Shown here in pieces: positions 2,438-22,516 of a stretch of 64,000 bases of DNA (its first letter is position 1; each line of letters begins with the position of its first letter). This DNA comes from Dehalococcoidia bacterium (GTDB lineage Bacteria > Chloroflexota > Dehalococcoidia > UBA2979). The notes under the pieces were generated by a model that did no database searches, was not told the origin of the DNA, and saw only the letters and a program-made list of their open reading frames with translations. The translations under genes were made by a program, and so were the position numbers. The stretch spans positions 1,184,001 to 1,248,000 of the forward strand of contig OZ244720.1 in NCBI GenBank assembly GCA_965219085.1, written 5' to 3'.

Positions 2438-5347
2438 TGGCGCGAGAACGCGCGCCGCGAGCGACCGGCGTCGCAGGAGCACTTCATCGACCTCTGCCGC
2501 CTGCTCGGCGTGCAGACTCCCAACGAGGCCGACCCCGTGGGCGAGTGGTACGCGTTCGAGGCGGGCGCGGAACGGACCAGCACCGGCCGGCAGGGCCGCG
2601 CCGACGTCTGGAAGCGCGAGCACTTCGGCTGGGAGTACAAGGGCGCCCACGCCGACCTCGCCGCGGCGTACCGCCAGCTCCTCGACTACCGCGAGGACCT
2701 CGAGAACCCGCCCGCGCTCGTCGTCAGCGACATGGACCTGATCGAGGTCCACACCAACTTCACCGGCACCCGCCCCGACATCCACCGCGTCACCCTCGAC
2801 GACCTCGATGCCGGCGGCGACCGCACGGCCGATGCGCTGCGCGTGCTGCGCGCCGTCATGCTCGAGCCGGAGGCGCTGCGGCCCGAGCAGACGCCCGACG
2901 AGATCACCGAGCTCGCCGCGGCGCGCTTCGCCGAGATCGCTCGGTCCATGCACGAGCGCGGGCACGAGCCGGAGGCGGTCGCGCACCACCTCAACCGCGT
3001 CGTCTTCTGCCTGTTCGCCGAGGACGCCCGGCTGCTGCCGGAGCGCGTGCTCACCGGCATGATCGAGTCGCGGCGCGGCGACCCCGGCGAGTTCGACCGA
3101 GGGCTCGCCGAGCTCTTCCGCCTCATGTCGGACCGCGCGGCCGGGCGCTTCTTCGGCAACGAGCGCGTCGAGTGGTTCAACGGCGGGCTCTTCGACGGCG
3201 CCGAGGTGATCCCGTGCACCGCCGAGGAGCTGCGCGCGATGCACGACGCGGCGCTGCTCGACTGGTCGCGCGTGGAGCCGGCGATCCTCGGCACGCTGTT
3301 CGAGCGCGGGCTGGACCCCGACAAGCGCGGGCAGCTCGGCGCGCACTACACGGACCACGAGAAGATCCTGATGGTCGTCGAGCCGGTCGTGCTCGACCCG
3401 CTGCGCCGCGAGTTCGCGGCGATGCAGGCGCGCGTCGAAGAGCTGGCGGGCGGCCAGGAGCCGAGCCCGCCCTTGCGCGACGGCCGCCGCCGCCCGCGCA
3501 GCGGCCGATTCCGCCTGGAACCGTGGGAGCAAGACAGTGAGGACGCGTGGCGCGCGTTCCTCGATCGGCTGCGCGCGGTGCGCGTGCTGGACCCGGCGTG
3601 CGGGTCGGGCAACTTCCTGTACGTGACGCTGCGGCTGCTCAAGGATCTGGAGCAGGAGGTGATCGGCTGGGGGACGGACCGGCTGCGCATCCCGCGCGAG
3701 TTCCCGCAGGTGGGGCCGCACAACGTGCTGGGCATCGAGCTGAACGCGTACGCGAGGGAGCTGGCGGGCGTCTCGATCTGGATCGGGCACATCCAGTGGA
3801 TGCTGGACCACGGCTACGGCTTCCCGCGCAACCCGGTGCTGCAGCCCCTCCACAACATCGAGCAGCGCGACGCGATCCTCGCCCGCGACGCCGAGGGCGC
3901 GCCGGTCCCGGCCACGTGGCCGACGGCTGAGTTCGTCGTCGGCAACCCGCCGTTCCTGGGCGGCGGCGGAGGTCGGCTTCGTTCGGCGCTCGGTGACGAC
4001 TACCTCACCTTCCTATGGGAAGCATGGGAGGGCGCAGTCGCCCGGGAGTCTGACCTCGTGTGCTACTGGCACGAGTTGGCGAGGGAGCAAATCGTAGCTG
4101 GCCTCACTTCTCGCGCTGGGTTGCTAGCCACGAACTCCGTCCGCGGAGGTCCGAATCGCCGCACGCTCGAACGGATCCGGGACTCCGGTCAGATCTTCAT
4201 GGCCTGGTCGGATGAGCCCTGGATAGTCGAGGGAGCAGCCGTCCGAGTCGCGATCGTCGCGCAAGACGACGGCTCGGAGTCACAGCGGGCGCTCGATGGT
4301 CACGCGGTCCCCGCGATCAACAGCGATCTCACGGGTGAACTCGATCTCACGCTGGCACGCGCTCTGCCAGAGAATTCGGGGACTTCCTTCAGAGGTGACA
4401 CAAAGGGGGGCGGGTTCGACATCGACGGCGACCTTGCCCGTGAAATGCTGAGGCAGCCGACAAACATCAACGGCCGCCCGAACGCCGACGTGATCGTGCC
4501 ATGGGTGAACGGGCGCGACGTCACGGCTCGGTCGCGCGGGATGTTCATCATTGACTTCGGGACAGAACTCTCAGAGGTCGAGGCCGCCGCCTATGAGTCA
4601 CCGTTTGCGCATGTCGAGGCGAACGTTCAGCCGGCGCGCGCCACGAATAGGCGTACCGCGTACCGAGAGCGCTGGTGGCGACACATCGAACCGCGGCCGG
4701 GGATGAGAAGCGCTCTGGCCCCGCTCTCGCGTTTCATTGTGACTACGATGGTGGCGAAGCACCGCACGTTCGTCTGGCTCTCTGCGCCGACACTCCCGGA
4801 TCAACAAGTCATCGTCATCGCGCGGGAGGACGACTACGCGTTTGGGGTGCTGCACTCGCGGGCGCACGAACTGTGGTCGCTGCGCATGGGGACGTGGCTC
4901 GGCGTCGGCAACGACCCGCGCTACACGCCCACCTCGACGTTCGAGACGTTCCCCTTCCCGTGGCCCCTCGACACCCCCGACGAGGCGCTGAGCGACGCGC
5001 AGCGCGCGCACCGCGACGCCATCGCCGAGGCGGCGCGGGCGCTCGACGAGGCGCGGCGGCGCTGGCTCAACCCGCCCGAGTGGGTGCGCGAGGAGCCCGA
5101 CGTGGTCCCCTCGCTGCCCCCGCGCCTGCTCCCTGTCGACGAGGACGCCGAGCGCGAGCTGCGCAAGCGCACGCTGACCAACCTCTACAACGCCCGCCCG
5201 GCGTGGCTCGCCCACCTCCACACCACCCTCGACGCCACCGTGTTCGCGGCGTACGGCTGGCCGGAGGCGGGGGCGCCCGCCGAGTTGGGGGAGGAGGAGC
5301 TGCTGGGGCGGCTGCTGGCGCTGAATTTCGAGCGGGCGGAGCCGTAA
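2393..5347 (+). CDS. Type IIL/IIG (MmeI-like) restriction-modification enzyme, N6-adenine MTase
   Basis: N-terminal AD...EYK nuclease motif, FNGGLF, GAHYT, DPACGSGNF (motif I), GNPPF (motif IV), C-terminal TRD and RTLTNLYN. Confidence 0.9.
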   Translation: MTATPDTSAAAFAAKWRENARRERPASQEHFIDLCRLLGVQTPNEADPVGEWYAFEAGAERTSTGRQGRADVWKREHFGWEYKGAHADLAAAYRQLLDYREDLENPPALVVSDMDLIEVHTNFTGTRPDIHRVTLDDLDAGGDRTADALRVLRAVMLEPEALRPEQTPDEITELAAARFAEIARSMHERGHEPEAVAHHLNRVVFCLFAEDARLLPERVLTGMIESRRGDPGEFDRGLAELFRLMSDRAAGRFFGNERVEWFNGGLFDGAEVIPCTAEELRAMHDAALLDWSRVEPAILGTLFERGLDPDKRGQLGAHYTDHEKILMVVEPVVLDPLRREFAAMQARVEELAGGQEPSPPLRDGRRRPRSGRFRLEPWEQDSEDAWRAFLDRLRAVRVLDPACGSGNFLYVTLRLLKDLEQEVIGWGTDRLRIPREFPQVGPHNVLGIELNAYARELAGVSIWIGHIQWMLDHGYGFPRNPVLQPLHNIEQRDAILARDAEGAPVPATWPTAEFVVGNPPFLGGGGGRLRSALGDDYLTFLWEAWEGAVARESDLVCYWHELAREQIVAGLTSRAGLLATNSVRGGPNRRTLERIRDSGQIFMAWSDEPWIVEGAAVRVAIVAQDDGSESQRALDGHAVPAINSDLTGELDLTLARALPENSGTSFRGDTKGGGFDIDGDLAREMLRQPTNINGRPNADVIVPWVNGRDVTARSRGMFIIDFGTELSEVEAAAYESPFAHVEANVQPARATNRRTAYRERWWRHIEPRPGMRSALAPLSRFIVTTMVAKHRTFVWLSAPTLPDQQVIVIAREDDYAFGVLHSRAHELWSLRMGTWLGVGNDPRYTPTSTFETFPFPWPLDTPDEALSDAQRAHRDAIAEAARALDEARRRWLNPPEWVREEPDVVPSLPPRLLPVDEDAERELRKRTLTNLYNARPAWLAHLHTTLDATVFAAYGWPEAGAPAELGEEELLGRLLALNFERAEP

Positions 5348-17187: not shown

Positions 17188-18027
17188 ATGGCCACCGCGA
17201 CGATCAACGGCGTCGAGATCTACTACGAGGAGCACGGCTCGGGCCCGCCGATCCTGTTCCACCACGGCTTCACCGGGTCGCACGACGGCTTCGTGCCGAT
17301 CGCCGAGCGCCTGCAGGATCGCTTCCGCTGCATCCTCATGGACTCTCGCGGCGCCGGCGACAGCGAGCGTCCCGACGGCGGCTACACGATCGAGCAGTAC
17401 TCGCAAGACATCGTCGGTCTGCTCGACCACCTCGGGCTCGACCAGGTCGCGTACGTCGGCCACAGCATGGGCGGCGGCATCGGCTTCCAGCTCGGCCTCG
17501 AGCACGCCGAGCGCTTCACGCACATCATGCTCGTCACGCCCATCTCCGCCGACGGCTACGCGACCGACCCGGTGCAGGCGGCGCGAGGCCGCCAGCTGCG
17601 CATGGACGGGGCGCGCGACGTGCTGATCCGCGAACGCAAGACCGGGATCGCGCGCGAGGAGCTCATCGACGAAGCCGAGATCGCACGGGACGTCGACCGC
17701 TCGCTCTCGGCCTCCGACGGCCACTACGACGACGGCATGGTGGCGATGGCCACCCTGCGCGTCGGTGACCGCCTGGACGAGATGACGACGCCGACGCTGA
17801 TGATCACCTCCGCCGCCGACGCCCTGCTCGCGGCCAACCTCGCCGACTTCCAGCGCCTGCCGAACGCCTCGCTGCACGTCTTCAACCGCGTCGCGCACGG
17901 CGTGCAGGACGAGGTCCCGGACGAGTTCGCCGAGTTGGTCGCGGACTTCGTGACGCACGGCGTGGTTAACGCGCAGACGCTGGCTGACCGCCTCGTCGCC
18001 GTGCAGGCGGAGGCCGCAGCGGTCTAG
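17188..18027 (+). CDS. Alpha/beta hydrolase
   Basis: HGFTG, DSRGAGDS, GHSMGG nucleophile elbow, late His. Confidence 0.95.
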   Translation: MATATINGVEIYYEEHGSGPPILFHHGFTGSHDGFVPIAERLQDRFRCILMDSRGAGDSERPDGGYTIEQYSQDIVGLLDHLGLDQVAYVGHSMGGGIGFQLGLEHAERFTHIMLVTPISADGYATDPVQAARGRQLRMDGARDVLIRERKTGIAREELIDEAEIARDVDRSLSASDGHYDDGMVAMATLRVGDRLDEMTTPTLMITSAADALLAANLADFQRLPNASLHVFNRVAHGVQDEVPDEFAELVADFVTHGVVNAQTLADRLVAVQAEAAAV

Positions 18028-18170
18028 CAGGCTGCTGAAGAAGCGCCCTTCCGGGGTCTCGGAGTGGCGAGAGGCGGCTTCAAGCCGCCTCCGGGTTCGT
18101 GATCGTGGCCTCCTGACCGGCCCCCGGGGGCCTCTGAGGGCTCCCTGGCGGGGCGGAGGGCGCACTGCGC

Positions 18171-18646
18171 CTACGCCGCGGCGGTCTCGAGCGTGGCCAT
18201 GCGCACGAGGTTGTAGGCGGCGGCGGTGAGCTCCAGCCAACAGCGGTTGCGCTCGCGGCCCACGAAGCGCAGCTTGCGCCCGCCGCCCACGGTCTTCATC
18301 CAGCCGAAGACCTGCTCCACGATCTTGCGCCGCTTCTGACTCTGCCTGTAGCCGCGATGCCGCGTGGTGCGCCCATCCACGGCGCTGCGGCGGCCGCGGT
18401 CGTGCTGCGCCACGTGCGGCGTCACGCCGCGAGCGCGCAGCGCCGCCACGAAGCCGCGCGTGTCGTAGCCGCGGTCGGCGCCCAGCGTCCCGCAGCCGCT
18501 CACGCTGCGCTCCAGCATCGTGACCGCCGCCTCGCGCTCGGCGTACCCGTTCGCCTCGGTCAACTCCACGTCCAGCACCAGACCGTGACGGTTCTCGGTG
18601 AGCAGATGGCCCATGTAGCTGAGCTTCGCCGTCTGCCCCGACCCCT
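18171..18646 (-). pseudogene. IS5 transposase, C-terminal fragment
   Basis: GSGQTAKLSYMGHLLTENRHGLV...GADRGYD...RKIVEQVFGWMK...AAYNLVRM. Confidence 0.9.
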
Positions 18647-18654
18647 AATGGGGC

Positions 18655-18890
18655 CCGACCAGCGGCCAGAGGTTCTCTGGCAGACTGGTTCTGGACCCTG
18701 CCAGCCGGTGAGCTCTCAGCTGATCCCTGCGGCTTCTGGACCGCTTCACGAAGACCGAGCCCCTGCTGGTATTCCGGGTTGTTCTGCAGCACTCATGGGG
18801 TGTCGTGCCATCGAGCACTGATCCATTAGGCCGTCGCAGGAACCAACCCGCCGGGTCGCACCGAGCAGCGCGAAGCGGGAGAGGAACTGA
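18655..18890 (+). ncRNA. Bridge RNA of IS110 element (ends approximate)
   Basis: Target loop CTGATCCCT (18720-28)/CACGAAG (18747-53); donor loop GGGGTGTC (18797-804)/CCATTAG (18823-29); each pair is separated by a short stem-loop. Confidence 0.85.
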
Positions 18891-18896
18891 AACACG

Positions 18897-20120
18897 ATGG
18901 CCTTGTACCTGGGCGATGACTGGTCCGAAGACCACCACGACGTCCATCTCATGAACGACGCGGGCGAGCGGCTCGCCGCCCGGCGTCTGCCCGAAGGGGT
19001 GGAGGGCATCACTGCCCTGCACGGACTGGTCGCCGGGTACGCCTCAGGGCCGGGTGAGGTGATCGTCGGCATCGAGACGGACCGCGGCCCCTGGGTCGCG
19101 GCACTGCTCGCGGCCGGCTACCACGTCTACGCCATCAACCCGCGCTCGGCGTCGCGTTACCGCGACCGCCACCACGTCGGCGGCGCCAAGTCCGACGCCG
19201 GCGACGCGAAGCTGCTCGCCGACCTCGTCCGCACCGACCGGCACAACCACCGGGAGGTCGCCGGCGACAGCGACGAAGCCGCCGCGGTGCGCATCCTCGC
19301 CCGCGCCCACCAGCAGTTGATCTGGGACCGCGTCCGCCAGACCAACCGGCTGCGCAACGCGCTCAGGGAGTACTTTCCGGGTGCGCTGGAGGCCTTCCCC
19401 GACCTCGCGCACGACGACGCGGTGGGCGTGCTGGCGACAGCGCCTGGCCCGCGCGAGGCGGCGCGGCTGAGCATCACCCAGATCCGCTCCGCGCTGCGCC
19501 GCGGCGGCCGCCGGCGCAACATCGAGCGGCGCGCCGCCGAGGTCCGCGACGCGCTGCGCTCACCGCAGCTCGAGGCTCCGCCCGCGGTGAGCAAGGCATT
19601 CGCCGCGAGCACCAGTGCGGCAATGAGGGTGATCGGCGAGATCAACCGTCAGATCAAGGAGCTCGAGGCCGAGCTCGCGAGCCATTTTGAGCAGCACCCG
19701 GACGCCGGTATCTACCGTTCCCTGCCCGGTCTCGGCGTGGTCCTCGGCGCCCGGGTGCTTGGCGAGTTCGGGGATGACCCCGAACGCTACGAGTCGGCGA
19801 AGTCCCGCAGGAACTACGCCGGCACGTCGCCGCTGACGGTAGCATCCGGCCGCAAGCACACCGTGAAAGCCCGCTTCGTCCGCAACCGGCGCCTCTACGA
19901 CGCAGTCGACCAGTGGGCGCTGTGCTCCCTGCAGGCCAGCCCCGGCTGCCGCGAGTTCTACGATCGGCGGCGCGCCGCGGGCGACCTCCACCACCAGGCG
20001 CTCCGCGCCCTCGGCAACCGTCTCGTCGGCTACCTACATGGCTGCCTGAAGCGCCGCTTGCCCTACGACGAGACGACCGCCTGGGGACACCGTTACACCC
20101 ACGAGGACCTCGCTGCTTGA
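18897..20120 (+). CDS. IS110-family DEDD recombinase/transposase
   Basis: GDDWS, GIET, KSDAGDA, SLPGLG, ASG, RALGNRLV; 407 aa intact. Confidence 0.95.
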   Translation: MALYLGDDWSEDHHDVHLMNDAGERLAARRLPEGVEGITALHGLVAGYASGPGEVIVGIETDRGPWVAALLAAGYHVYAINPRSASRYRDRHHVGGAKSDAGDAKLLADLVRTDRHNHREVAGDSDEAAAVRILARAHQQLIWDRVRQTNRLRNALREYFPGALEAFPDLAHDDAVGVLATAPGPREAARLSITQIRSALRRGGRRRNIERRAAEVRDALRSPQLEAPPAVSKAFAASTSAAMRVIGEINRQIKELEAELASHFEQHPDAGIYRSLPGLGVVLGARVLGEFGDDPERYESAKSRRNYAGTSPLTVASGRKHTVKARFVRNRRLYDAVDQWALCSLQASPGCREFYDRRRAAGDLHHQALRALGNRLVGYLHGCLKRRLPYDETTAWGHRYTHEDLAA

Positions 20121-20144
20121 CCCCTTAGCGTCCTGGGGGTGTCT

Positions 20145-20274
20145 TCGTGTACAGCCGCGCCTCCGGGTCCGTGCCGGAACTATGCGTATCGCGGCTGCGC
20201 CGCCGCCCGCGGAAGTCGACATCCGGGTTGCGTCCGCCCAGGGGTGGCTCCTGCTCGTCGCGCGGGCGGTAGCT
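20145..20274 (-). pseudogene. IS5 transposase, middle fragment
   Basis: Manual translation SYRPRDEQEPPLGGRNPDVDFRGRRRSRDTHSSGTDPEARLYTK. Confidence 0.9.
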
Positions 20275-20299
20275 TCTATGAGGGACGGTCTTTCTGCAA

Positions 20300-20610
20300 G
20301 GCCGACGTGGCGGCCTCCTCCTCGGGGCGTGGCGCTCCTCGACATCGGGGCCGATCCGCTCGTGATGTCCCCTGACGGAGCCTGTGCCGAGCTTCTATCC
20401 GCACTCTTTGATGGGCCACGTATCGGGCCCGGTGCATGAAGGCACATCCTGCTTCCAGGGGGCGCTGCCAACTCTTGAACGTCCTTGTTGGACCGCTACC
20501 GCCTCGCAGTCGCCCGTTGCCCGGCATCACGTGCAGTGGTTGGTTTGCTGGGCCTCCTCCCAGGTCCGTCTCAGTCTCGCTCTCCTGGTCGGTTGCTTCG
20601 GCGCCGCGCC
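20300..20610 (-). ncRNA. Seek/bridge RNA of IS1111-type element (3' non-coding region, ends approximate)
   Basis: Minus strand GGCGGTAGC (20503-20495) and TCAAGAG (20478-20472) match the target flanks; CCATC (20414-10) and ATAGAAG (20398-92) match the circle junction. Confidence 0.8.
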
Positions 20611-20613
20611 TTG

Positions 20614-21702
20614 CTACGCGGCCTCCTGCGCCGCGGCGTCGCGCAACGGCTCGTAGACCTCGCCGGTCTTCCACAGCGCGAGCAGCAGCACCGCCAGCCG
20701 CCTCGCGACGCCCACGACGGCGCGCTTCTTCGCGTTACCGGCCCCCGTAGCGGTGTAGCGCTCACCCCAGCGGCGCAGGTCGGTGTCGGGCCCGAAGGGG
20801 CCGAGGATGTAGTGCGCGGCCTGCACCAGCAGCCGCCGCAGGTGCGGATCGCCGCTCTTGCCGATGCCGAGTTGCGGCGTGCGCTCGCCCGAGTCGCGCT
20901 GCCTCGGCACGAGCCCGAGGTAGGCGCCGACCTCGCGGTTCTTCGGGAAGCGCCCAGGATCCTCGATCGTCAGCACGAACGTGAGCGCGGTGATCGGCCC
21001 GACGCCCGTGACCTGGCGCAGCGCCGCGGTCTCGGAGTGAGCCTCGCACAACGCCTCGATCTCGCGGCCGGCCGCCGCGATGCGCGCGGTCAGCTCGCCG
21101 ATCGCCTCCACCAGCGGCAGCAGCGCCGGGCGCAGCCCGTCGGGGATGTGGTCCGCCGTCTTGCGGTGGAACGCCTCGGCCGTGCACGACGGCAACGCGG
21201 CTCCGCAGGCCTTGACGGCCCCGCGCACGTGGTTGATGAGCAGCGTCCGCGAGCGCACCAGCGCGTCGCGGGCGCGCACCACGGCGAGGTCGTGCTGGCT
21301 CGCCTCGCTGCGGTGGCGGATCGGGGCGAGCAACTGGGGGTCGAAGCGCCCCAGCCGCGCCAGCCACTCGGCGTCGAGCCGGTCGGTCTTGCGCTGGCTG
21401 CGGGCGATCAGCGCGACCTGGCGCGGGTTGGCGACGACCACCTCGTGGCCGAGGTCCGCCATGAGGCGGCTCAGCCACGGCGAGCGCGGCCCCGCCTCGA
21501 TCACGACCCGCGATGGGGGGAGGCCGGTCAGCACCATGCCCAGCGCTGCCGTCGTGGTGCGGACGCGCCTCTCACGTACCACCTCCCCGCCGGCGCCGAG
21601 GGCGTGGACGTGGGTGTAGCGGTCGCCCACGTCGAGGCCGATGGTGACCCCTGACCCTTCCTTGCCCTCAATGCTCCACGTCGTTGCGGTATCCTGCTGC
21701 AC
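20614..21702 (-). CDS. IS110-family (IS1111-type) transposase
   Basis: GLDVG, VIEAG, KTDRLDA, VTGVGPITA, YLGLVPRQRDSG, AVVGVARRLA. Confidence 0.95.
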   Translation of the reverse strand: MQQDTATTWSIEGKEGSGVTIGLDVGDRYTHVHALGAGGEVVRERRVRTTTAALGMVLTGLPPSRVVIEAGPRSPWLSRLMADLGHEVVVANPRQVALIARSQRKTDRLDAEWLARLGRFDPQLLAPIRHRSEASQHDLAVVRARDALVRSRTLLINHVRGAVKACGAALPSCTAEAFHRKTADHIPDGLRPALLPLVEAIGELTARIAAAGREIEALCEAHSETAALRQVTGVGPITALTFVLTIEDPGRFPKNREVGAYLGLVPRQRDSGERTPQLGIGKSGDPHLRRLLVQAAHYILGPFGPDTDLRRWGERYTATGAGNAKKRAVVGVARRLAVLLLALWKTGEVYEPLRDAAAQEAA

Positions 21703-21814
21703 GGCCGGTCTCCTACCTCGTCAAAGCTCCGCAAAGAGCCGTTCTGGCCCATCGAGGCCGCTGTTTCGGGGGCGAGTATCCCCCTTGAGGAAGAGACCGG
21801 CCCTCATGCCATCT

Positions 21815-22285
21815 CTTGAGCGACGCCCACGCCTCGAGCAGCGTCCCGTCCACCGTGAAGTGCTCGGCCGAGAGCAGCCGGCGGCGCTTTGCCTCGGCCA
21901 CCACCTCGGCGAAGAAGGCGCGCGCGACATCGGCTGCGAGCAGGCGCTCGCGGTTCTTGGAGAAGCTCGAGGCGTCGAACGGCGCGTCTGAGATGTTGAG
22001 GTCCAAGAACCACTTGAAGAGCAGGTCGTAGCGCAGCCGCTCGCTGAACTGGCGCTCGCTGCGGATCGAGTAGAGCGCGATCAGCAGGCTCGCCTTGAGC
22101 AGGTGCTCGGGCGGGATCGAGGGCCGCCCGCTCGTTGCGTACATCGTGCCGAAGAGCGGCGAGAGCCGCTGCAGCGCTGCATCGACGATCGGCTTGATGC
22201 GTCGGATCGGGTGGTCGTCCGGGATGAAGGAGTCCGGCGTCACCGCCAGCAACATGTTGGTCTGACGCTCAGCGTCGCCTCGCAC
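21815..22285 (-). pseudogene. IS5 transposase, N-terminal fragment
   Basis: DHPIRRI, GRPSIPPEHLLKA, SIRSERQ, HFTVDGTLLEAWASLK. Confidence 0.9.
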
Positions 22286-22516
22286 GGGGCTGCCTCCCAG
22301 GCTACGCCCCCGCCGCCTTCGCTATCCTGCCAGATGGCCGCGCCTTTTTCAGCACCCTGCTAGGCTCCCCACCTGGGGCCGAACGCAAGAATCGGGGAGC
22401 CGCCGCGGCGGCTCCCCGGCGTCACCTCCGTGGCGCGGCCGAGGGCGATCCGGGTGGCGACGCAGCCCCACCCGAGCGCAAAGACGACTACCAGCCGTAA
22501 TCGGAGAGTGATTCTT

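Follow-up and report, generated by a model that had tools for sequence, protein, structure and literature searches.

Two probably RNA-guided IS110-family elements nested in the transposase gene of an IS5-family insertion sequence

The window analyzed here, a 64,000-nucleotide stretch of an environmental Dehalococcoidia genome, contains an IS5-family insertion sequence (18024-22363) with an IS length of 1,294 bp and flanking 4-bp CTAG duplications, whose transposase gene is interrupted by two different elements that we term ISA (IS110 group) and ISB (IS1111 group). Sequence comparison makes it very probable that the IS5 inserted at a CTAG site and that two site-specific, RNA-guided elements of the IS110 family later invaded its transposase gene. 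An earlier note on this DNA had proposed that two different RNA-guided IS110-family elements were each programmed against this one gene, a proposal borne out by predicted guides that match the site and covary with it across relatives. The host element comprises the following features.

18024-18027, no strand: IS5 target duplication, left copy (CTAG); 12 IS5 copies at different loci have CTAG or CTAA flanks
18028-18043, no strand: IS5 terminal inverted repeat, end downstream of the transposase gene (inverted-repeat search)
18171-18646, minus strand: IS5 transposase gene, 3' fragment, codons after LYTK to the stop (DDE_Tnp_1, E 2.7e-16)
20145-20274, minus strand: IS5 transposase gene, middle fragment, 130 nt, SYRPRDEQE...LYTK (copy comparison and in-silico excision)
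21815-22285, minus strand: IS5 transposase gene, 5' fragment, GTG start to ...AWASLK (DUF772, 1.5e-21, Pfam)
22344-22359, no strand: IS5 terminal inverted repeat, end upstream of the transposase gene (inverted-repeat search)
22360-22363, no strand: IS5 target duplication, right copy (CTAG) (sequence and copy comparison)

Scripted excision of 18647-20144 and 20275-21814 left 1,302 bp including both CTAGs, or a 1,294-bp IS, and restored a 358-aa ORF that starts with GTG, spans 1,077 nt with its stop codon and is identical at 345 of 358 residues to a natural uninterrupted copy (L010:193-1269, 358 aa). The inverted repeats are imperfect (20-nt arms at 18024-18043 and 22344-22363, 90% complementary), and the four flanking bases can be read as a target duplication because one IS5 copy, c10, has CTAA rather than CTAG on both sides. 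ISB is inserted between the codons ...AWASLK^SY and ISA between ...LYTK^GSG, 130 bp apart (20145-20274), splitting the frame into three pieces with Pfam matches to DUF772 and DDE_Tnp_1; since the insertions split the transposase gene, IS5 inactivation is their direct consequence. The coordinates, the sizes of the ORF and IS, the inverted repeats, the CTAG and both insertion points with their spacing, as the earlier note gave them, all hold. The genome carries 12 full-length IS5 copies and one diverged copy, and because both junction pairs are found again elsewhere and this genome also has empty IS5 sites, the nesting reflects more than chance.

Six copies of ISA (at least 99.8% identity) were found, five of them at an identical IS5 junction, with ...GACCCCT on the left of the element and TCGTGTAC on the right. 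The sixth lies outside IS5, between GATCTCT and TCGTGGAT, where only 6 of 9 left-guide positions match. ISB is present in five copies (at least 99.87% identity), four with IS5 on both flanks and one with IS5 on one flank only. A 4.3-kb IS5/ISA/ISB unit occurs in three copies (c1, c2 and c11) at three loci; besides these, ISA occupies IS5 copies c3 and c12, and ISB occupies c4. Over ~1,300 sites, the occupied IS5 backbones differ at 24-25 positions between c3 and c1/c2/c11, at 55-60 between c12 and either c1/c2/c11 or c3, and at 72-75 between c4 and c1/c2/c11, while the copies of ISA vary at 3 columns and those of ISB at 4. Because the occupied backbones have diverged while the element copies are near-identical, we infer at least three separate ISA insertions and at least two separate ISB insertions. 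Independent copies thus do share their IS5 insertion codons across diverged backbones, as the earlier note had suggested checking. Copy counts overstate the independent events, since c1, c2 and c11 may be one composite that was copied and c6-c10 are identical or differ by 0-2 sites. In an IS5 copy with only 76-89% identity, a relative of ISB also occupies the position taken by ISB.

The organization of ISA is as follows.

18647-20144, plus strand: ISA, IS110-group element, 1,498 bp as delimited, CT on both sides (18645-46, 20143-44) (six copies, junctions, empty sites)
18720-18728, plus strand: predicted target-binding loop, 5' arm, left target guide CTGATCCCT, same sense as left flank CCGACCCCT (guide/site comparison)
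18729-18744, plus strand: small hairpin GCGG...CCGC between the two target guides (compensatory changes in 2 of 4 pairs, 15 distinct sequences)
18746-18753, plus strand: predicted target-binding loop, 3' arm, right target guide TCACGAAG, reverse complement of CT+TCGTG(A) (guide/site comparison)
18795-18829, plus strand: predicted donor-binding loop (sequence; block kept in 15 of 15 distinct family sequences)
18897-20120, plus strand: ISA recombinase gene, 407 aa (PF01548 2.7e-37, PF02371 4.1e-11; aligns to the IS621 transposase 8wt6)

The layout is that of the IS110 group, with 250 nt of non-coding sequence upstream of the gene and 24 nt downstream, and the 407-aa ORF, like the 362-aa ORF of ISB, contains the Pfam domains DEDD_Tnp_IS110 and Transposase_20. 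The 250-nt left end would encode a predicted bridge RNA. Its left guide CTGATCCCT matches the flank CCGACCCCT exactly at 7 of 9 positions, the other two being U-G wobbles, and its donor loop consists of ATGGGGTGTC (same sense as the right end, ...GGGGTGTCT), a hairpin GTGC..GCAC and CCATTAG, the reverse complement of CT+AATGG at the left end. Among 3,000 random sites with the same core, 126 reach the strict score of the ISA guides and 81 the wobble score; the match by itself is statistically weak, and the putative guide assignment rests on covariation in the family. Across 15 distinct family sequences, the left end contains two variable blocks within a stem-closed internal loop, with compensatory double changes at 6 of 40 predicted pairs, and the guides track the flanks (right TCGTG, TCAT or CTCCC; left GGCTCCCT, ACTTCC or CGAGCT).

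ISB lies in the opposite orientation.

20275-21814, minus strand: ISB, IS1111-group element, 1,540 bp as delimited, AG on both sides in its own orientation (copies, junctions)
20278-20290, no strand: ISB sub-terminal inverted repeat, right-end side, ATGAGGGACGGTC on the window plus strand (sequence)
20392-20415, minus strand: putative ISB donor-binding segments, RNA strand (sequence match only)
20472-20479, minus strand: predicted target-binding loop, 3' arm TTCAAGAG, same sense as left flank, TCAAG + core AG (guide/site comparison)
20480-20494, minus strand: ISB hairpin between the two target guides (right-end alignment)
20495-20503, minus strand: predicted target-binding loop, 5' arm GGCGGTAGC, reverse complement of core G + right flank CTACCGCC (guide/site comparison)
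20614-21702, minus strand: ISB recombinase gene, 362 aa (PF02371 4.6e-20, PF01548 2.8e-19; aligns to the ISCro4 and IS621 transposases)
21795-21807, no strand: ISB sub-terminal inverted repeat, left-end side (sequence)

Here the layout is that of the IS1111 group, with 339 nt of non-coding sequence downstream of the gene and 13-nt sub-terminal inverted repeats, and the 339-nt right end would encode a predicted seekRNA/bridge RNA. In the putative donor segments, CCCATC is the reverse complement of the left-end G+ATGG(G) and ATAGAAG matches the right-end ATAGA + AG. The right ends of the ISB family are conserved throughout except for two short blocks flanking a hairpin, with a conserved stem enclosing them. 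Seven of 15 distinct element/site pairs have 11-13 contiguous guide matches beyond the core; non-cognate pairings of guide and site (n=105) average 1.28 matches, with 8 or more in 1 of 105. The true ISB site scores 16, a score matched by 2 of 3,000 random genomic sites with the same core. Guide and insertion site disagree in two family members, which counts against the guide reading: B2_341, a chimera, and L029.

Across relatives in this and sister genomes, the variable guide blocks change together with the insertion site. Relatives of ISB in this genome lie in an IS1380-like transposase gene (3 copies), an IS110-family transposase gene and an IS3-family OrfB, and those in sister genomes lie in an rve-type transposase gene, beside IstB, upstream of an IS110 gene and in an IS1380 gene. 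Relatives of ISA occur in IS256 and IS1380 transposase genes, and most of those in sister genomes sit in a short GC-rich repeat, with ...CCCGCCCT on the left of the junction and CTCCCGC... on the right. From these sequences, both lineages look like parasites specializing on other parasites, with the guides of one lineage diversified against several unrelated IS families. The idea that transposase codons serve as a multi-copy safe harbor, put forward before this analysis, is strengthened by these relatives with other guides in other transposase genes.

In this genome, the 15-nt ISB target is found intact six times and its 12-nt version eight times, in every case inside IS5, and most copies of both elements lie in IS5 rather than in unrelated, equally matching sites. 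Eight unoccupied IS5 copies carry the 12-nt ISB target (six with the 15-nt target), so ISB is not saturating and any "brake" on IS5 would be partial. No unoccupied site in the genome matches the 14-nt ISA pattern; one empty site outside IS5, at genome position 1,837,018, shares the central 12 nt of the ISA target. The IS5 allele that matches the guides (GACCCCT-TCGTG) is ISA-occupied in 5 of 5 copies, whereas the variant (GCTCCCT-TTGTG) is ISA-empty in 7 of 7, or 3/3 versus 0/4 when counted by IS5 lineage. This pattern suggests that the insertions may brake IS5 spread. In such an arms race or brake, the IS110-family elements would be effective regulators of how much IS5 the genome carries, and intact IS5 would persist because of an escape allele at the ISA site. 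We regard this reading as possible but doubtful. The guide-matching allele occurs in five IS5 copies, every one of them disrupted, and the only intact copies, c5-c10, carry ACA AAG GGA GCG instead of ACG AAG GGG TCG, with the 0-2 differences among c6-c10 pointing to recent expansion. Among 8 IS5 loci in six sister genomes, 7 have the susceptible allele and none has the GGA or GCG change; IS5-directed guides, among the loci read, were seen in this genome only. However, the variant costs just one true mismatch and one wobble against the predicted guides, and it is shared by c4, c5 and c6-c10, lineages 17-49 sites apart, which makes it older than the recent ISA burst. The clustering of changes is weak (2 of 31 c6-c10-specific changes fall in the target, with ~0.33 expected in 14 nt), and the surviving lineage keeps its ISB site intact. 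Matches to the IS5 protein range from none to 28 per sister genome searched (match counts, not copy numbers), with no obvious excess over the copies found here.

A single accidental insertion of each element, multiplied by composite copying or IS5 gene conversion with no targeting, is disfavored and would surprise us. It would account for c1, c2 and c11, which share one backbone (3-6 differences) and each carry both elements, and for an extra G in ISA that is private to c1 and c2, and the B2_341 chimera indicates that gene conversion does occur between these elements. Yet the occupied c3, c12 and c4 lie 24-75 sites from that backbone, with differences as near as 19-26 nt from the junctions, the non-IS5 copy of ISA is at a look-alike site, and guide blocks covary with sites over more than 10 variants in two families. 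Still less credible is that the recombinase protein or DNA structure chooses the target and that the RNA-block matches are coincidental: a recent preprint reports, in its available text, a "sequence-structure dual-match logic" for an IS110 element, but recombinases 87-90% identical to that of ISB are found at more than 8 different targets, and hypervariability in the right end is confined to two blocks that spell the flanks. Mis-assembly, with the nesting an artifact of collapsed or joined repeats, we consider the least plausible of all, since although the whole region consists of multi-copy repeats and public runs give only short unitigs, none spanning the stretch, the genome is a single 3.3-Mb contig, the same nested order recurs at three loci, each with its own unique flanks, the junctions agree exactly in empty and singly occupied copies, excision yields a perfect 358-aa frame, and a contig from run X12 joins 18027 to 22373, an empty chromosomal site in a related strain.

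On the favored reading, an IS5-family element landed at a CTAG site, and ISA and ISB would then each have inserted into its transposase gene, guided by their own predicted RNAs. By analogy with published IS621, ISEc11 and relatives, each element would excise as a circle, transcribe its guide RNA and undergo recombinase-mediated strand exchange at the core. The IS5 coding sequence may serve as a landing pad that is multi-copy, dispensable and itself mobile, and sister elements would follow the same strategy with guides pointing to other transposase genes. The disabled 4.3-kb unit is likely moved in trans by intact IS5 copies, and its three copies at three loci are circumstantial evidence for movement as a composite.

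The IS5 of Escherichia coli belongs to the IS5 group of the IS5 family. Our host element resembles it by described properties, not sequence identity, in being ~1.2-1.3 kb long, with 16-bp imperfect terminal repeats, a 4-bp CTAG/CTAA-type duplication and a single DDE transposase with DUF772 and DDE_Tnp_1, and differs in serving only as a host element here. As far as the available text of Durrant et al. (2024, PMC11208160) describes it, IS621 of the IS110 group shares with ISA a DEDD and Tnp_20 recombinase, a long left non-coding end, two internal loops whose 5' arm matches the bottom strand and 3' arm the top strand, and a CT core on both sides without terminal inverted repeats; the bottom-strand arm lies 5' in ISA, agreeing with the order reported there for IS110-type elements. 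The recombinases are distant (phmmer E 5.6e-08 to 8wt6), and the natural targets of IS621 in that account are REP elements, whereas ISA targets coding sequence in another IS's transposase gene. ISB resembles ISEc11, ISKpn4 and ISPa11, as portrayed in the accessible portion of Siddiquee et al. (2024, PMC11187229), in its non-coding region downstream of the recombinase gene and its sub-terminal inverted repeats, and its top-strand match lies 5', the order given there for IS1111-type elements. Those elements target a short linear site, attC sites or REP, while ISB and its relatives are directed at transposase genes belonging to other IS families. Transposons homing into transposons are not a new idea, and ISB is like known IS1111-group elements with a specific target in another transposon; what they enter is the non-coding terminal repeat of a single transposon family, whereas ISA and ISB enter internal coding sequences and destroy the transposase gene. 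ISPpu9, ISPpu10 and other REP-targeting IS110 elements, in the accounts available to us, land in a multi-copy genomic repeat, as do most sister-genome relatives of ISA, and unlike these, ISA has different guide blocks and sits in IS5.

The source genome is a single contig of 3.31 Mb with 69.8% G+C, of which the window covers 1184001-1248000, and within it the transposase gene of an IS5 element is split into three pieces by two further insertion sequences, here called ISA and ISB.

Components of the nested element (window positions, strand, identity)
18024-27 and 22360-63: CTAG repeats, bracketing imperfect inverted repeats
18171-18646, minus: IS5 transposase gene piece with DDE_Tnp_1
18647-20144, plus: ISA
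20145-20274, minus: middle piece of the IS5 transposase gene
20275-21814, minus: ISB
21815-22285, minus: IS5 transposase gene piece with DUF772

Scripted removal of 18647-20144 and 20275-21814 yields an ORF of 1,077 nt (358 aa) that is identical at 345/358 positions to a natural uninterrupted copy. An intact IS5 copy matches PF05598 (6.4e-22) and PF01609 (7.9e-17), a domain-level match that identifies a DDE transposase. DUF772 together with DDE_Tnp_1, the terminal inverted repeats, and a 4-bp target duplication, which is typical of the IS5 group, place the element in the IS5 group of the IS5 family. The earlier note had described the CTAG duplication, the inverted repeats, the two insertions, and the ORF restored by excision, and all numbers in its observation are correct. 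Among four public runs, searched as Logan short unitigs, no piece spans the 18024-22363 stretch, and parts without bridging contigs are uninformative on this point. The nested feature at 18024-22363 is real.

ISA and ISB are new members of two known groups, IS110 and IS1111, respectively. ISA encodes a 407-aa protein on the plus strand with DEDD and Transposase_20 domains (PF01548, 2.7e-37; PF02371, 4.1e-11), both of which are covered by its alignment to IS621 transposase structure entries. Its noncoding DNA comprises 250 nt upstream of the ORF and 24 nt downstream, the 25 longest inverted pairs (220 in all) include no terminal inverted repeat, and CT is present at both junctions in all six copies, with empty sites reading ...CCCT^T(C/T)GTG (^ marks junctions). 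The domains, long left end, 2-nt core, and bridge RNA loops predicted in silico assign ISA to the IS110 group. ISB encodes a 362-aa protein on the minus strand, also with DEDD and Transposase_20 domains (Pfam), that aligns to the IS621 and ISCro4 transposases. The longer noncoding stretch of ISB lies downstream of the recombinase gene (339 nt, versus 112 nt upstream), and 13-nt subterminal inverted repeats, ATGAGGG(C/A)CGGTC, lie a few bases in from each end; the available text of Durrant 2024 (PMC11208160) gives 7 to 17 bp for such repeats in the IS1111 group. The domains, downstream noncoding region, subterminal repeats, and predicted seekRNA arm order assign ISB to that group. The layout of ISA corresponds to the IS110 group as published by Durrant 2024 (PMC11208160) and that of ISB to the IS1111 group as published by Siddiquee 2024 (PMC11187229), as far as the available text of both papers goes. 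Across both elements, Rfam matched no bridge or seek RNA family. The only Rfam match above gathering within 17900-22500 was Ms_AS-4, an actinobacterial sRNA, which lies antisense inside the ISA recombinase gene (19721-19802, minus; 63.9 bits, gathering score 50) and also at positions 3751-3832 (minus) of a second locus, L008; what this family captures is probably a conserved stretch of IS110 coding sequence.

We surveyed copies in this genome by blastn of five segments and by reading the flanks. IS5 is present as 12 copies at ≥92% identity (c1 to c12), one diverged copy, and two fragments, with each copy at its own locus between CTAG repeats (CTAA once).

Occupancy of IS5 copies
c1 (window copy) and c2: ISA and ISB
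c11: ISA, ISB, and an IS1380-like element
c3: ISA only
c12: ISA and an IS256-family element
c4: ISB only
c5 to c10: empty

Five of six ISA copies share an identical IS5 junction; the sixth lies between GATCTCT and TCGTGGAT, and this sole non-IS5 site lies within a 227-codon ORF-like frame that matches nothing in Pfam. ISB has IS5 on both sides in four of five copies and on the left-end side only in the fifth. The right-end flank of this fifth copy (locus L007, genome 1856964-1859963), AG-TGACCGCT, equals AG-CTACCGCC at 7/10 positions, and the copy looks like a product of half-site recombination or deletion. Once the insertions are excised, the IS5 backbones of c1, c2, and c11 differ from one another by 3 to 6 positions, c3 differs from these three by 24 to 25, c12 from all others by 55 to 64, and c4 from c1/c2/c11 by 72 to 75, with 0 to 2 differences among c6 to c10. 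Set against this divergence, ISA has 3 variable columns among its copies and ISB 4, which makes both elements much younger than the split between the IS5 copies. On these alignments, IS5 was entered at least three times by ISA and at least twice by ISB, at the same nucleotide each time. The diverged IS5 copy has the same site occupied by an ISB relative that is 85.7% identical. Two patterns that the earlier note had put forward as checks, independent copies at the same IS5 codons and empty IS5 alleles, are thus both present in this genome: the former for ISA and ISB in diverged backbones, the latter as c5 to c10.

The 4.3-kb unit is the same in c1, c2, and c11, which occupy three loci, each bracketed by an IS5 duplication (CTAG/CTAC in c11). 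The two composite loci other than the window copy lie at genome 3274433-3278771 and 1799390-1805368. Composite transposition of this unit is the simplest reading, the alternative being that sister IS5 copies were invaded repeatedly, at all three loci. The ISA copies of c1 and c2 have a private extra G in common, and a contig from run X12 joins 18027 to 22373, showing a related strain in which this chromosomal site is empty. Transposase could be supplied in trans by intact IS5 genes (345/358 identical), and one intact copy lies at genome 875711-877011.

When the right ends of ISB and its 85 to 87% identical relatives were aligned, two hypervariable blocks flanking a hairpin stood out against an otherwise conserved scaffold. 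The ISB 5' block, GGCGGTAGC, is the reverse complement of the core G followed by the right flank (G+CTACCGCC), and its 3' block, TTCAAGAG, has the sequence of the left flank followed by the core (TCAAG+AG); the two overlap at the core G in the predicted seekRNA. Three further guide variants were called in this genome after resolving tandem right-end duplications. For naming interrupted genes, third-position G+C filtering and Pfam replaced the longest junction-spanning ORF, which was rejected because wrong frames stay open at ∼70% G+C.

Further ISB-family guide variants (5' block / 3' block; site; target gene)
CACCCACT / CGGCAGAG; ..GGGCAG-AG-TGGGTG..; IS1380-like transposase gene
CCGAGCTGC / TCCACCAG; ..CCCACC-AG-CAGCTCG..; IS110-family transposase gene
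CAGGCTGCT / CCGCATAG; ..CCGCAT-AG-CAGCCTG..; rve_3 end of an IS3-family OrfB

Adding 26 sister-genome loci gave 15 distinct element/site pairs, which we scored. Seven of these had 11 to 13 contiguous matches beyond the core, compared with an average of 1.28 for 105 noncognate pairs, and among 3,000 random sites with the same core, 2 scored at least as high as ISB at its own site (16). The ISB relative in the diverged IS5 copy (L006, genome 340394-341911) carries IS1380-directed guides that do not fit its own site. From ∼nt 300 to its end, it matches the IS1380-targeting copies at 98.7 to 100% in 150-nt windows, but its first 150 nt are only 81% identical; on this window-wise identity we rejected trans-guiding for this copy (B2_341), which is a gene-conversion chimera. 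A sister-genome element of the ISB family (L029) occupies the site type of another guide variant (CTCAGT-AG^G-TCTCTGAG) with its own guides, CGAAGCAG and AGCGGCTGT, a mismatch for which trans-guiding or conversion is possible. Two sister-genome loci where IS5 seemed to be broken at the ISB codon were discarded as ISB events: L090 (sister genome G080) holds a 1,035-bp DDE IS with GTAGTTCCC ends at CTAG that interrupts IS5 3 nt from the ISB site by coincidence rather than by an ISB-type event, and L091 is a truncated IS5 adjoining an integrase gene.

The left end of ISA carries, in order, CTGATCCCT, a hairpin, and TCACGAAG, followed further on by ATGGGGTGTC, a hairpin, and CCATTAG. The first pair matches the IS5 left flank with 7 exact positions and 2 U-G wobbles out of 9 and the right flank as CT+TCGTG; the second pair (donor arms) matches the element's own joined ends. 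By itself the ISA guide match is weak, with its strict score reached by 126 of 3,000 random sites. The 28 ISA-family loci compared, drawn from this genome and 11 sister genomes, have a conserved left end in which, as in the ISB family, two variable blocks are found; they occupy a stem-closed internal loop, and folding of the 15 distinct left-end sequences showed compensatory changes at 6/40 predicted pairs. The guide blocks of this family follow the flanks. Most relatives at 81 to 85% identity sit in a short GC-rich repeat (..CCCGCCCT^CTCCCGC..), and those at 67% lie in transposase genes of the IS256 (L066) and IS1380 (L052) families and in a primase-like gene (L065). The repeated junctions and the guide/flank matches support in silico the central proposal of the earlier note, that two different RNA-guided IS110-family elements are programmed against one IS5 transposase gene.

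The ISB target occurs in the genome six times as the intact 15-nt sequence and eight times in a 12-nt version, always inside IS5. No unoccupied site in the genome fits the 14-nt ISA pattern, and the central 12 nt of the ISA target have a single unoccupied non-IS5 match, at position 1837018 (GACCCCTTCGTG), a possible natural test of how many more guide positions ISA needs. ISA occupies all five IS5 copies reading GACCCCT-TCGTG and none of the seven reading GCTCCCT-TTGTG, and the susceptible codons are present in 7/8 IS5 loci from six sister genomes. We offer "escape" by the variant IS5 allele only as a hypothesis because this allele is common to IS5 lineages differing at 17 to 49 sites and because only 2/31 of the changes specific to c6 to c10 fall in the ISA target. 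The brake on IS5 suggested by the earlier note is likewise hypothetical.

Metagenome-assembled genomes of Dehalococcoidia/Tepidiformaceae are the source of close relatives of the elements in the window. Two ISB copies hold a 911-nt ORF-less group II intron (Rfam RF02003, RF00029) between nt 15 and 16 of the ISB subterminal repeat, a further level of nesting (L003:2210-3054, genome ∼1972909-1973819; L007:2239-3083, genome ∼1859038-1859948), and in sister genomes group II intron RT genes adjoin the left end of ISB-like elements (L022, L030). Tandem partial right-end duplications are found in ISB relatives at genome 1261333-1261392, 893319-893395, and 2850003-2850738 (L012, L008, and L014/L073); their units each restart at AG, and one junction lies in DNA encoding the donor guide (GATAGA^AGAAGCTCGG). 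Locus L008 (genome 890500-896100) is an IS graveyard in which an IS256-like fragment is followed by an ISA-like gene fragment split by an ISB relative, by an ISA-like pseudogene with one frameshift and 82.6% identity to ISA, and then by c7, the empty IS5 copy that directly adjoins it. A third IS110-family element of 1,184 bp (L074, L075) is present in three identical copies (genome 751255-752438, 756693-757876, and 3084810-3085993), two of which adjoin, in opposite orientations, a repeat present at least 15 times in the genome (...CAGACCATCC^), a placement that resembles insertion at the ends of another IS. In sister genome G078 (L072), an ISB-family right end (...CCCTCATAGA^AG^CACTCATGGGGTGTC) lies inside an ISA-family left end, within donor-binding-loop DNA; the apparent target of one IS110-family element here is a second element's guide-RNA gene.

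RNA-guided target choice and a preference for repeated DNA are established for this family in the available text of PMC11208160 and PMC11187229. In the open full-text literature searched, which includes the available text of these two papers and of 10.64898/2026.08.14.744561, PMC7371123, PMC6352166, and PMC3205602, we came across no IS110-family elements described as being directed by their guides into the coding region of a transposase; the supplementary target tables and logos of PMC11208160 and PMC11187229 may hold such cases. The same main texts yielded no report of one recombinase lineage whose guides have diversified to match coding motifs inside several transposase genes unrelated to each other, together with two different IS110-family elements converging on one IS5 gene.

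In this and the sister genomes the recombinases are near-identical (87 to 90%) and the guide blocks alone differ, spelling conserved coding motifs of unrelated transposase genes. To our knowledge, bridge and seek RNAs are known as programmable guides, but their natural reprogramming and its targets are poorly documented, and this natural series offers direct comparative evidence for natural retargeting. It also presents a testable mobile-element conflict, where a transposon that knocks out another can nonetheless be carried along with it, pairs susceptible with variant target alleles such that mismatch tolerance becomes measurable, and warns that intact-looking IS families can be hidden from annotation by nested IS110 elements. 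We tentatively raise the broader, and on balance doubtful, idea that two IS110-family lineages in this Dehalococcoidia family might act as specialised hyperparasites of other insertion sequences, retargeting by mutation of only two 8- to 9-nt guide blocks among transposase genes (IS5, IS1380, IS110, IS3, rve-type, IstB, IS256), killing the host transposase, riding its ends, and selecting escape alleles in an RNA-guided arms race that would shape IS load.

Partridge & Hall reportedly described an IS1111 member homing into the ends of Tn21-family transposons. ISB shares with ISEc11, ISPa11, and ISKpn4 a top-strand match 5' of the bottom-strand match, the order reported for those elements in the available text of Siddiquee 2024 (PMC11187229). 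Hunters of transposon ends (IS4321/IS5075 type) target the host transposon's terminal inverted repeat, whereas the ISA and ISB targets lie 619 bp and 545 bp, respectively, inside the IS5 ends, in coding sequence.
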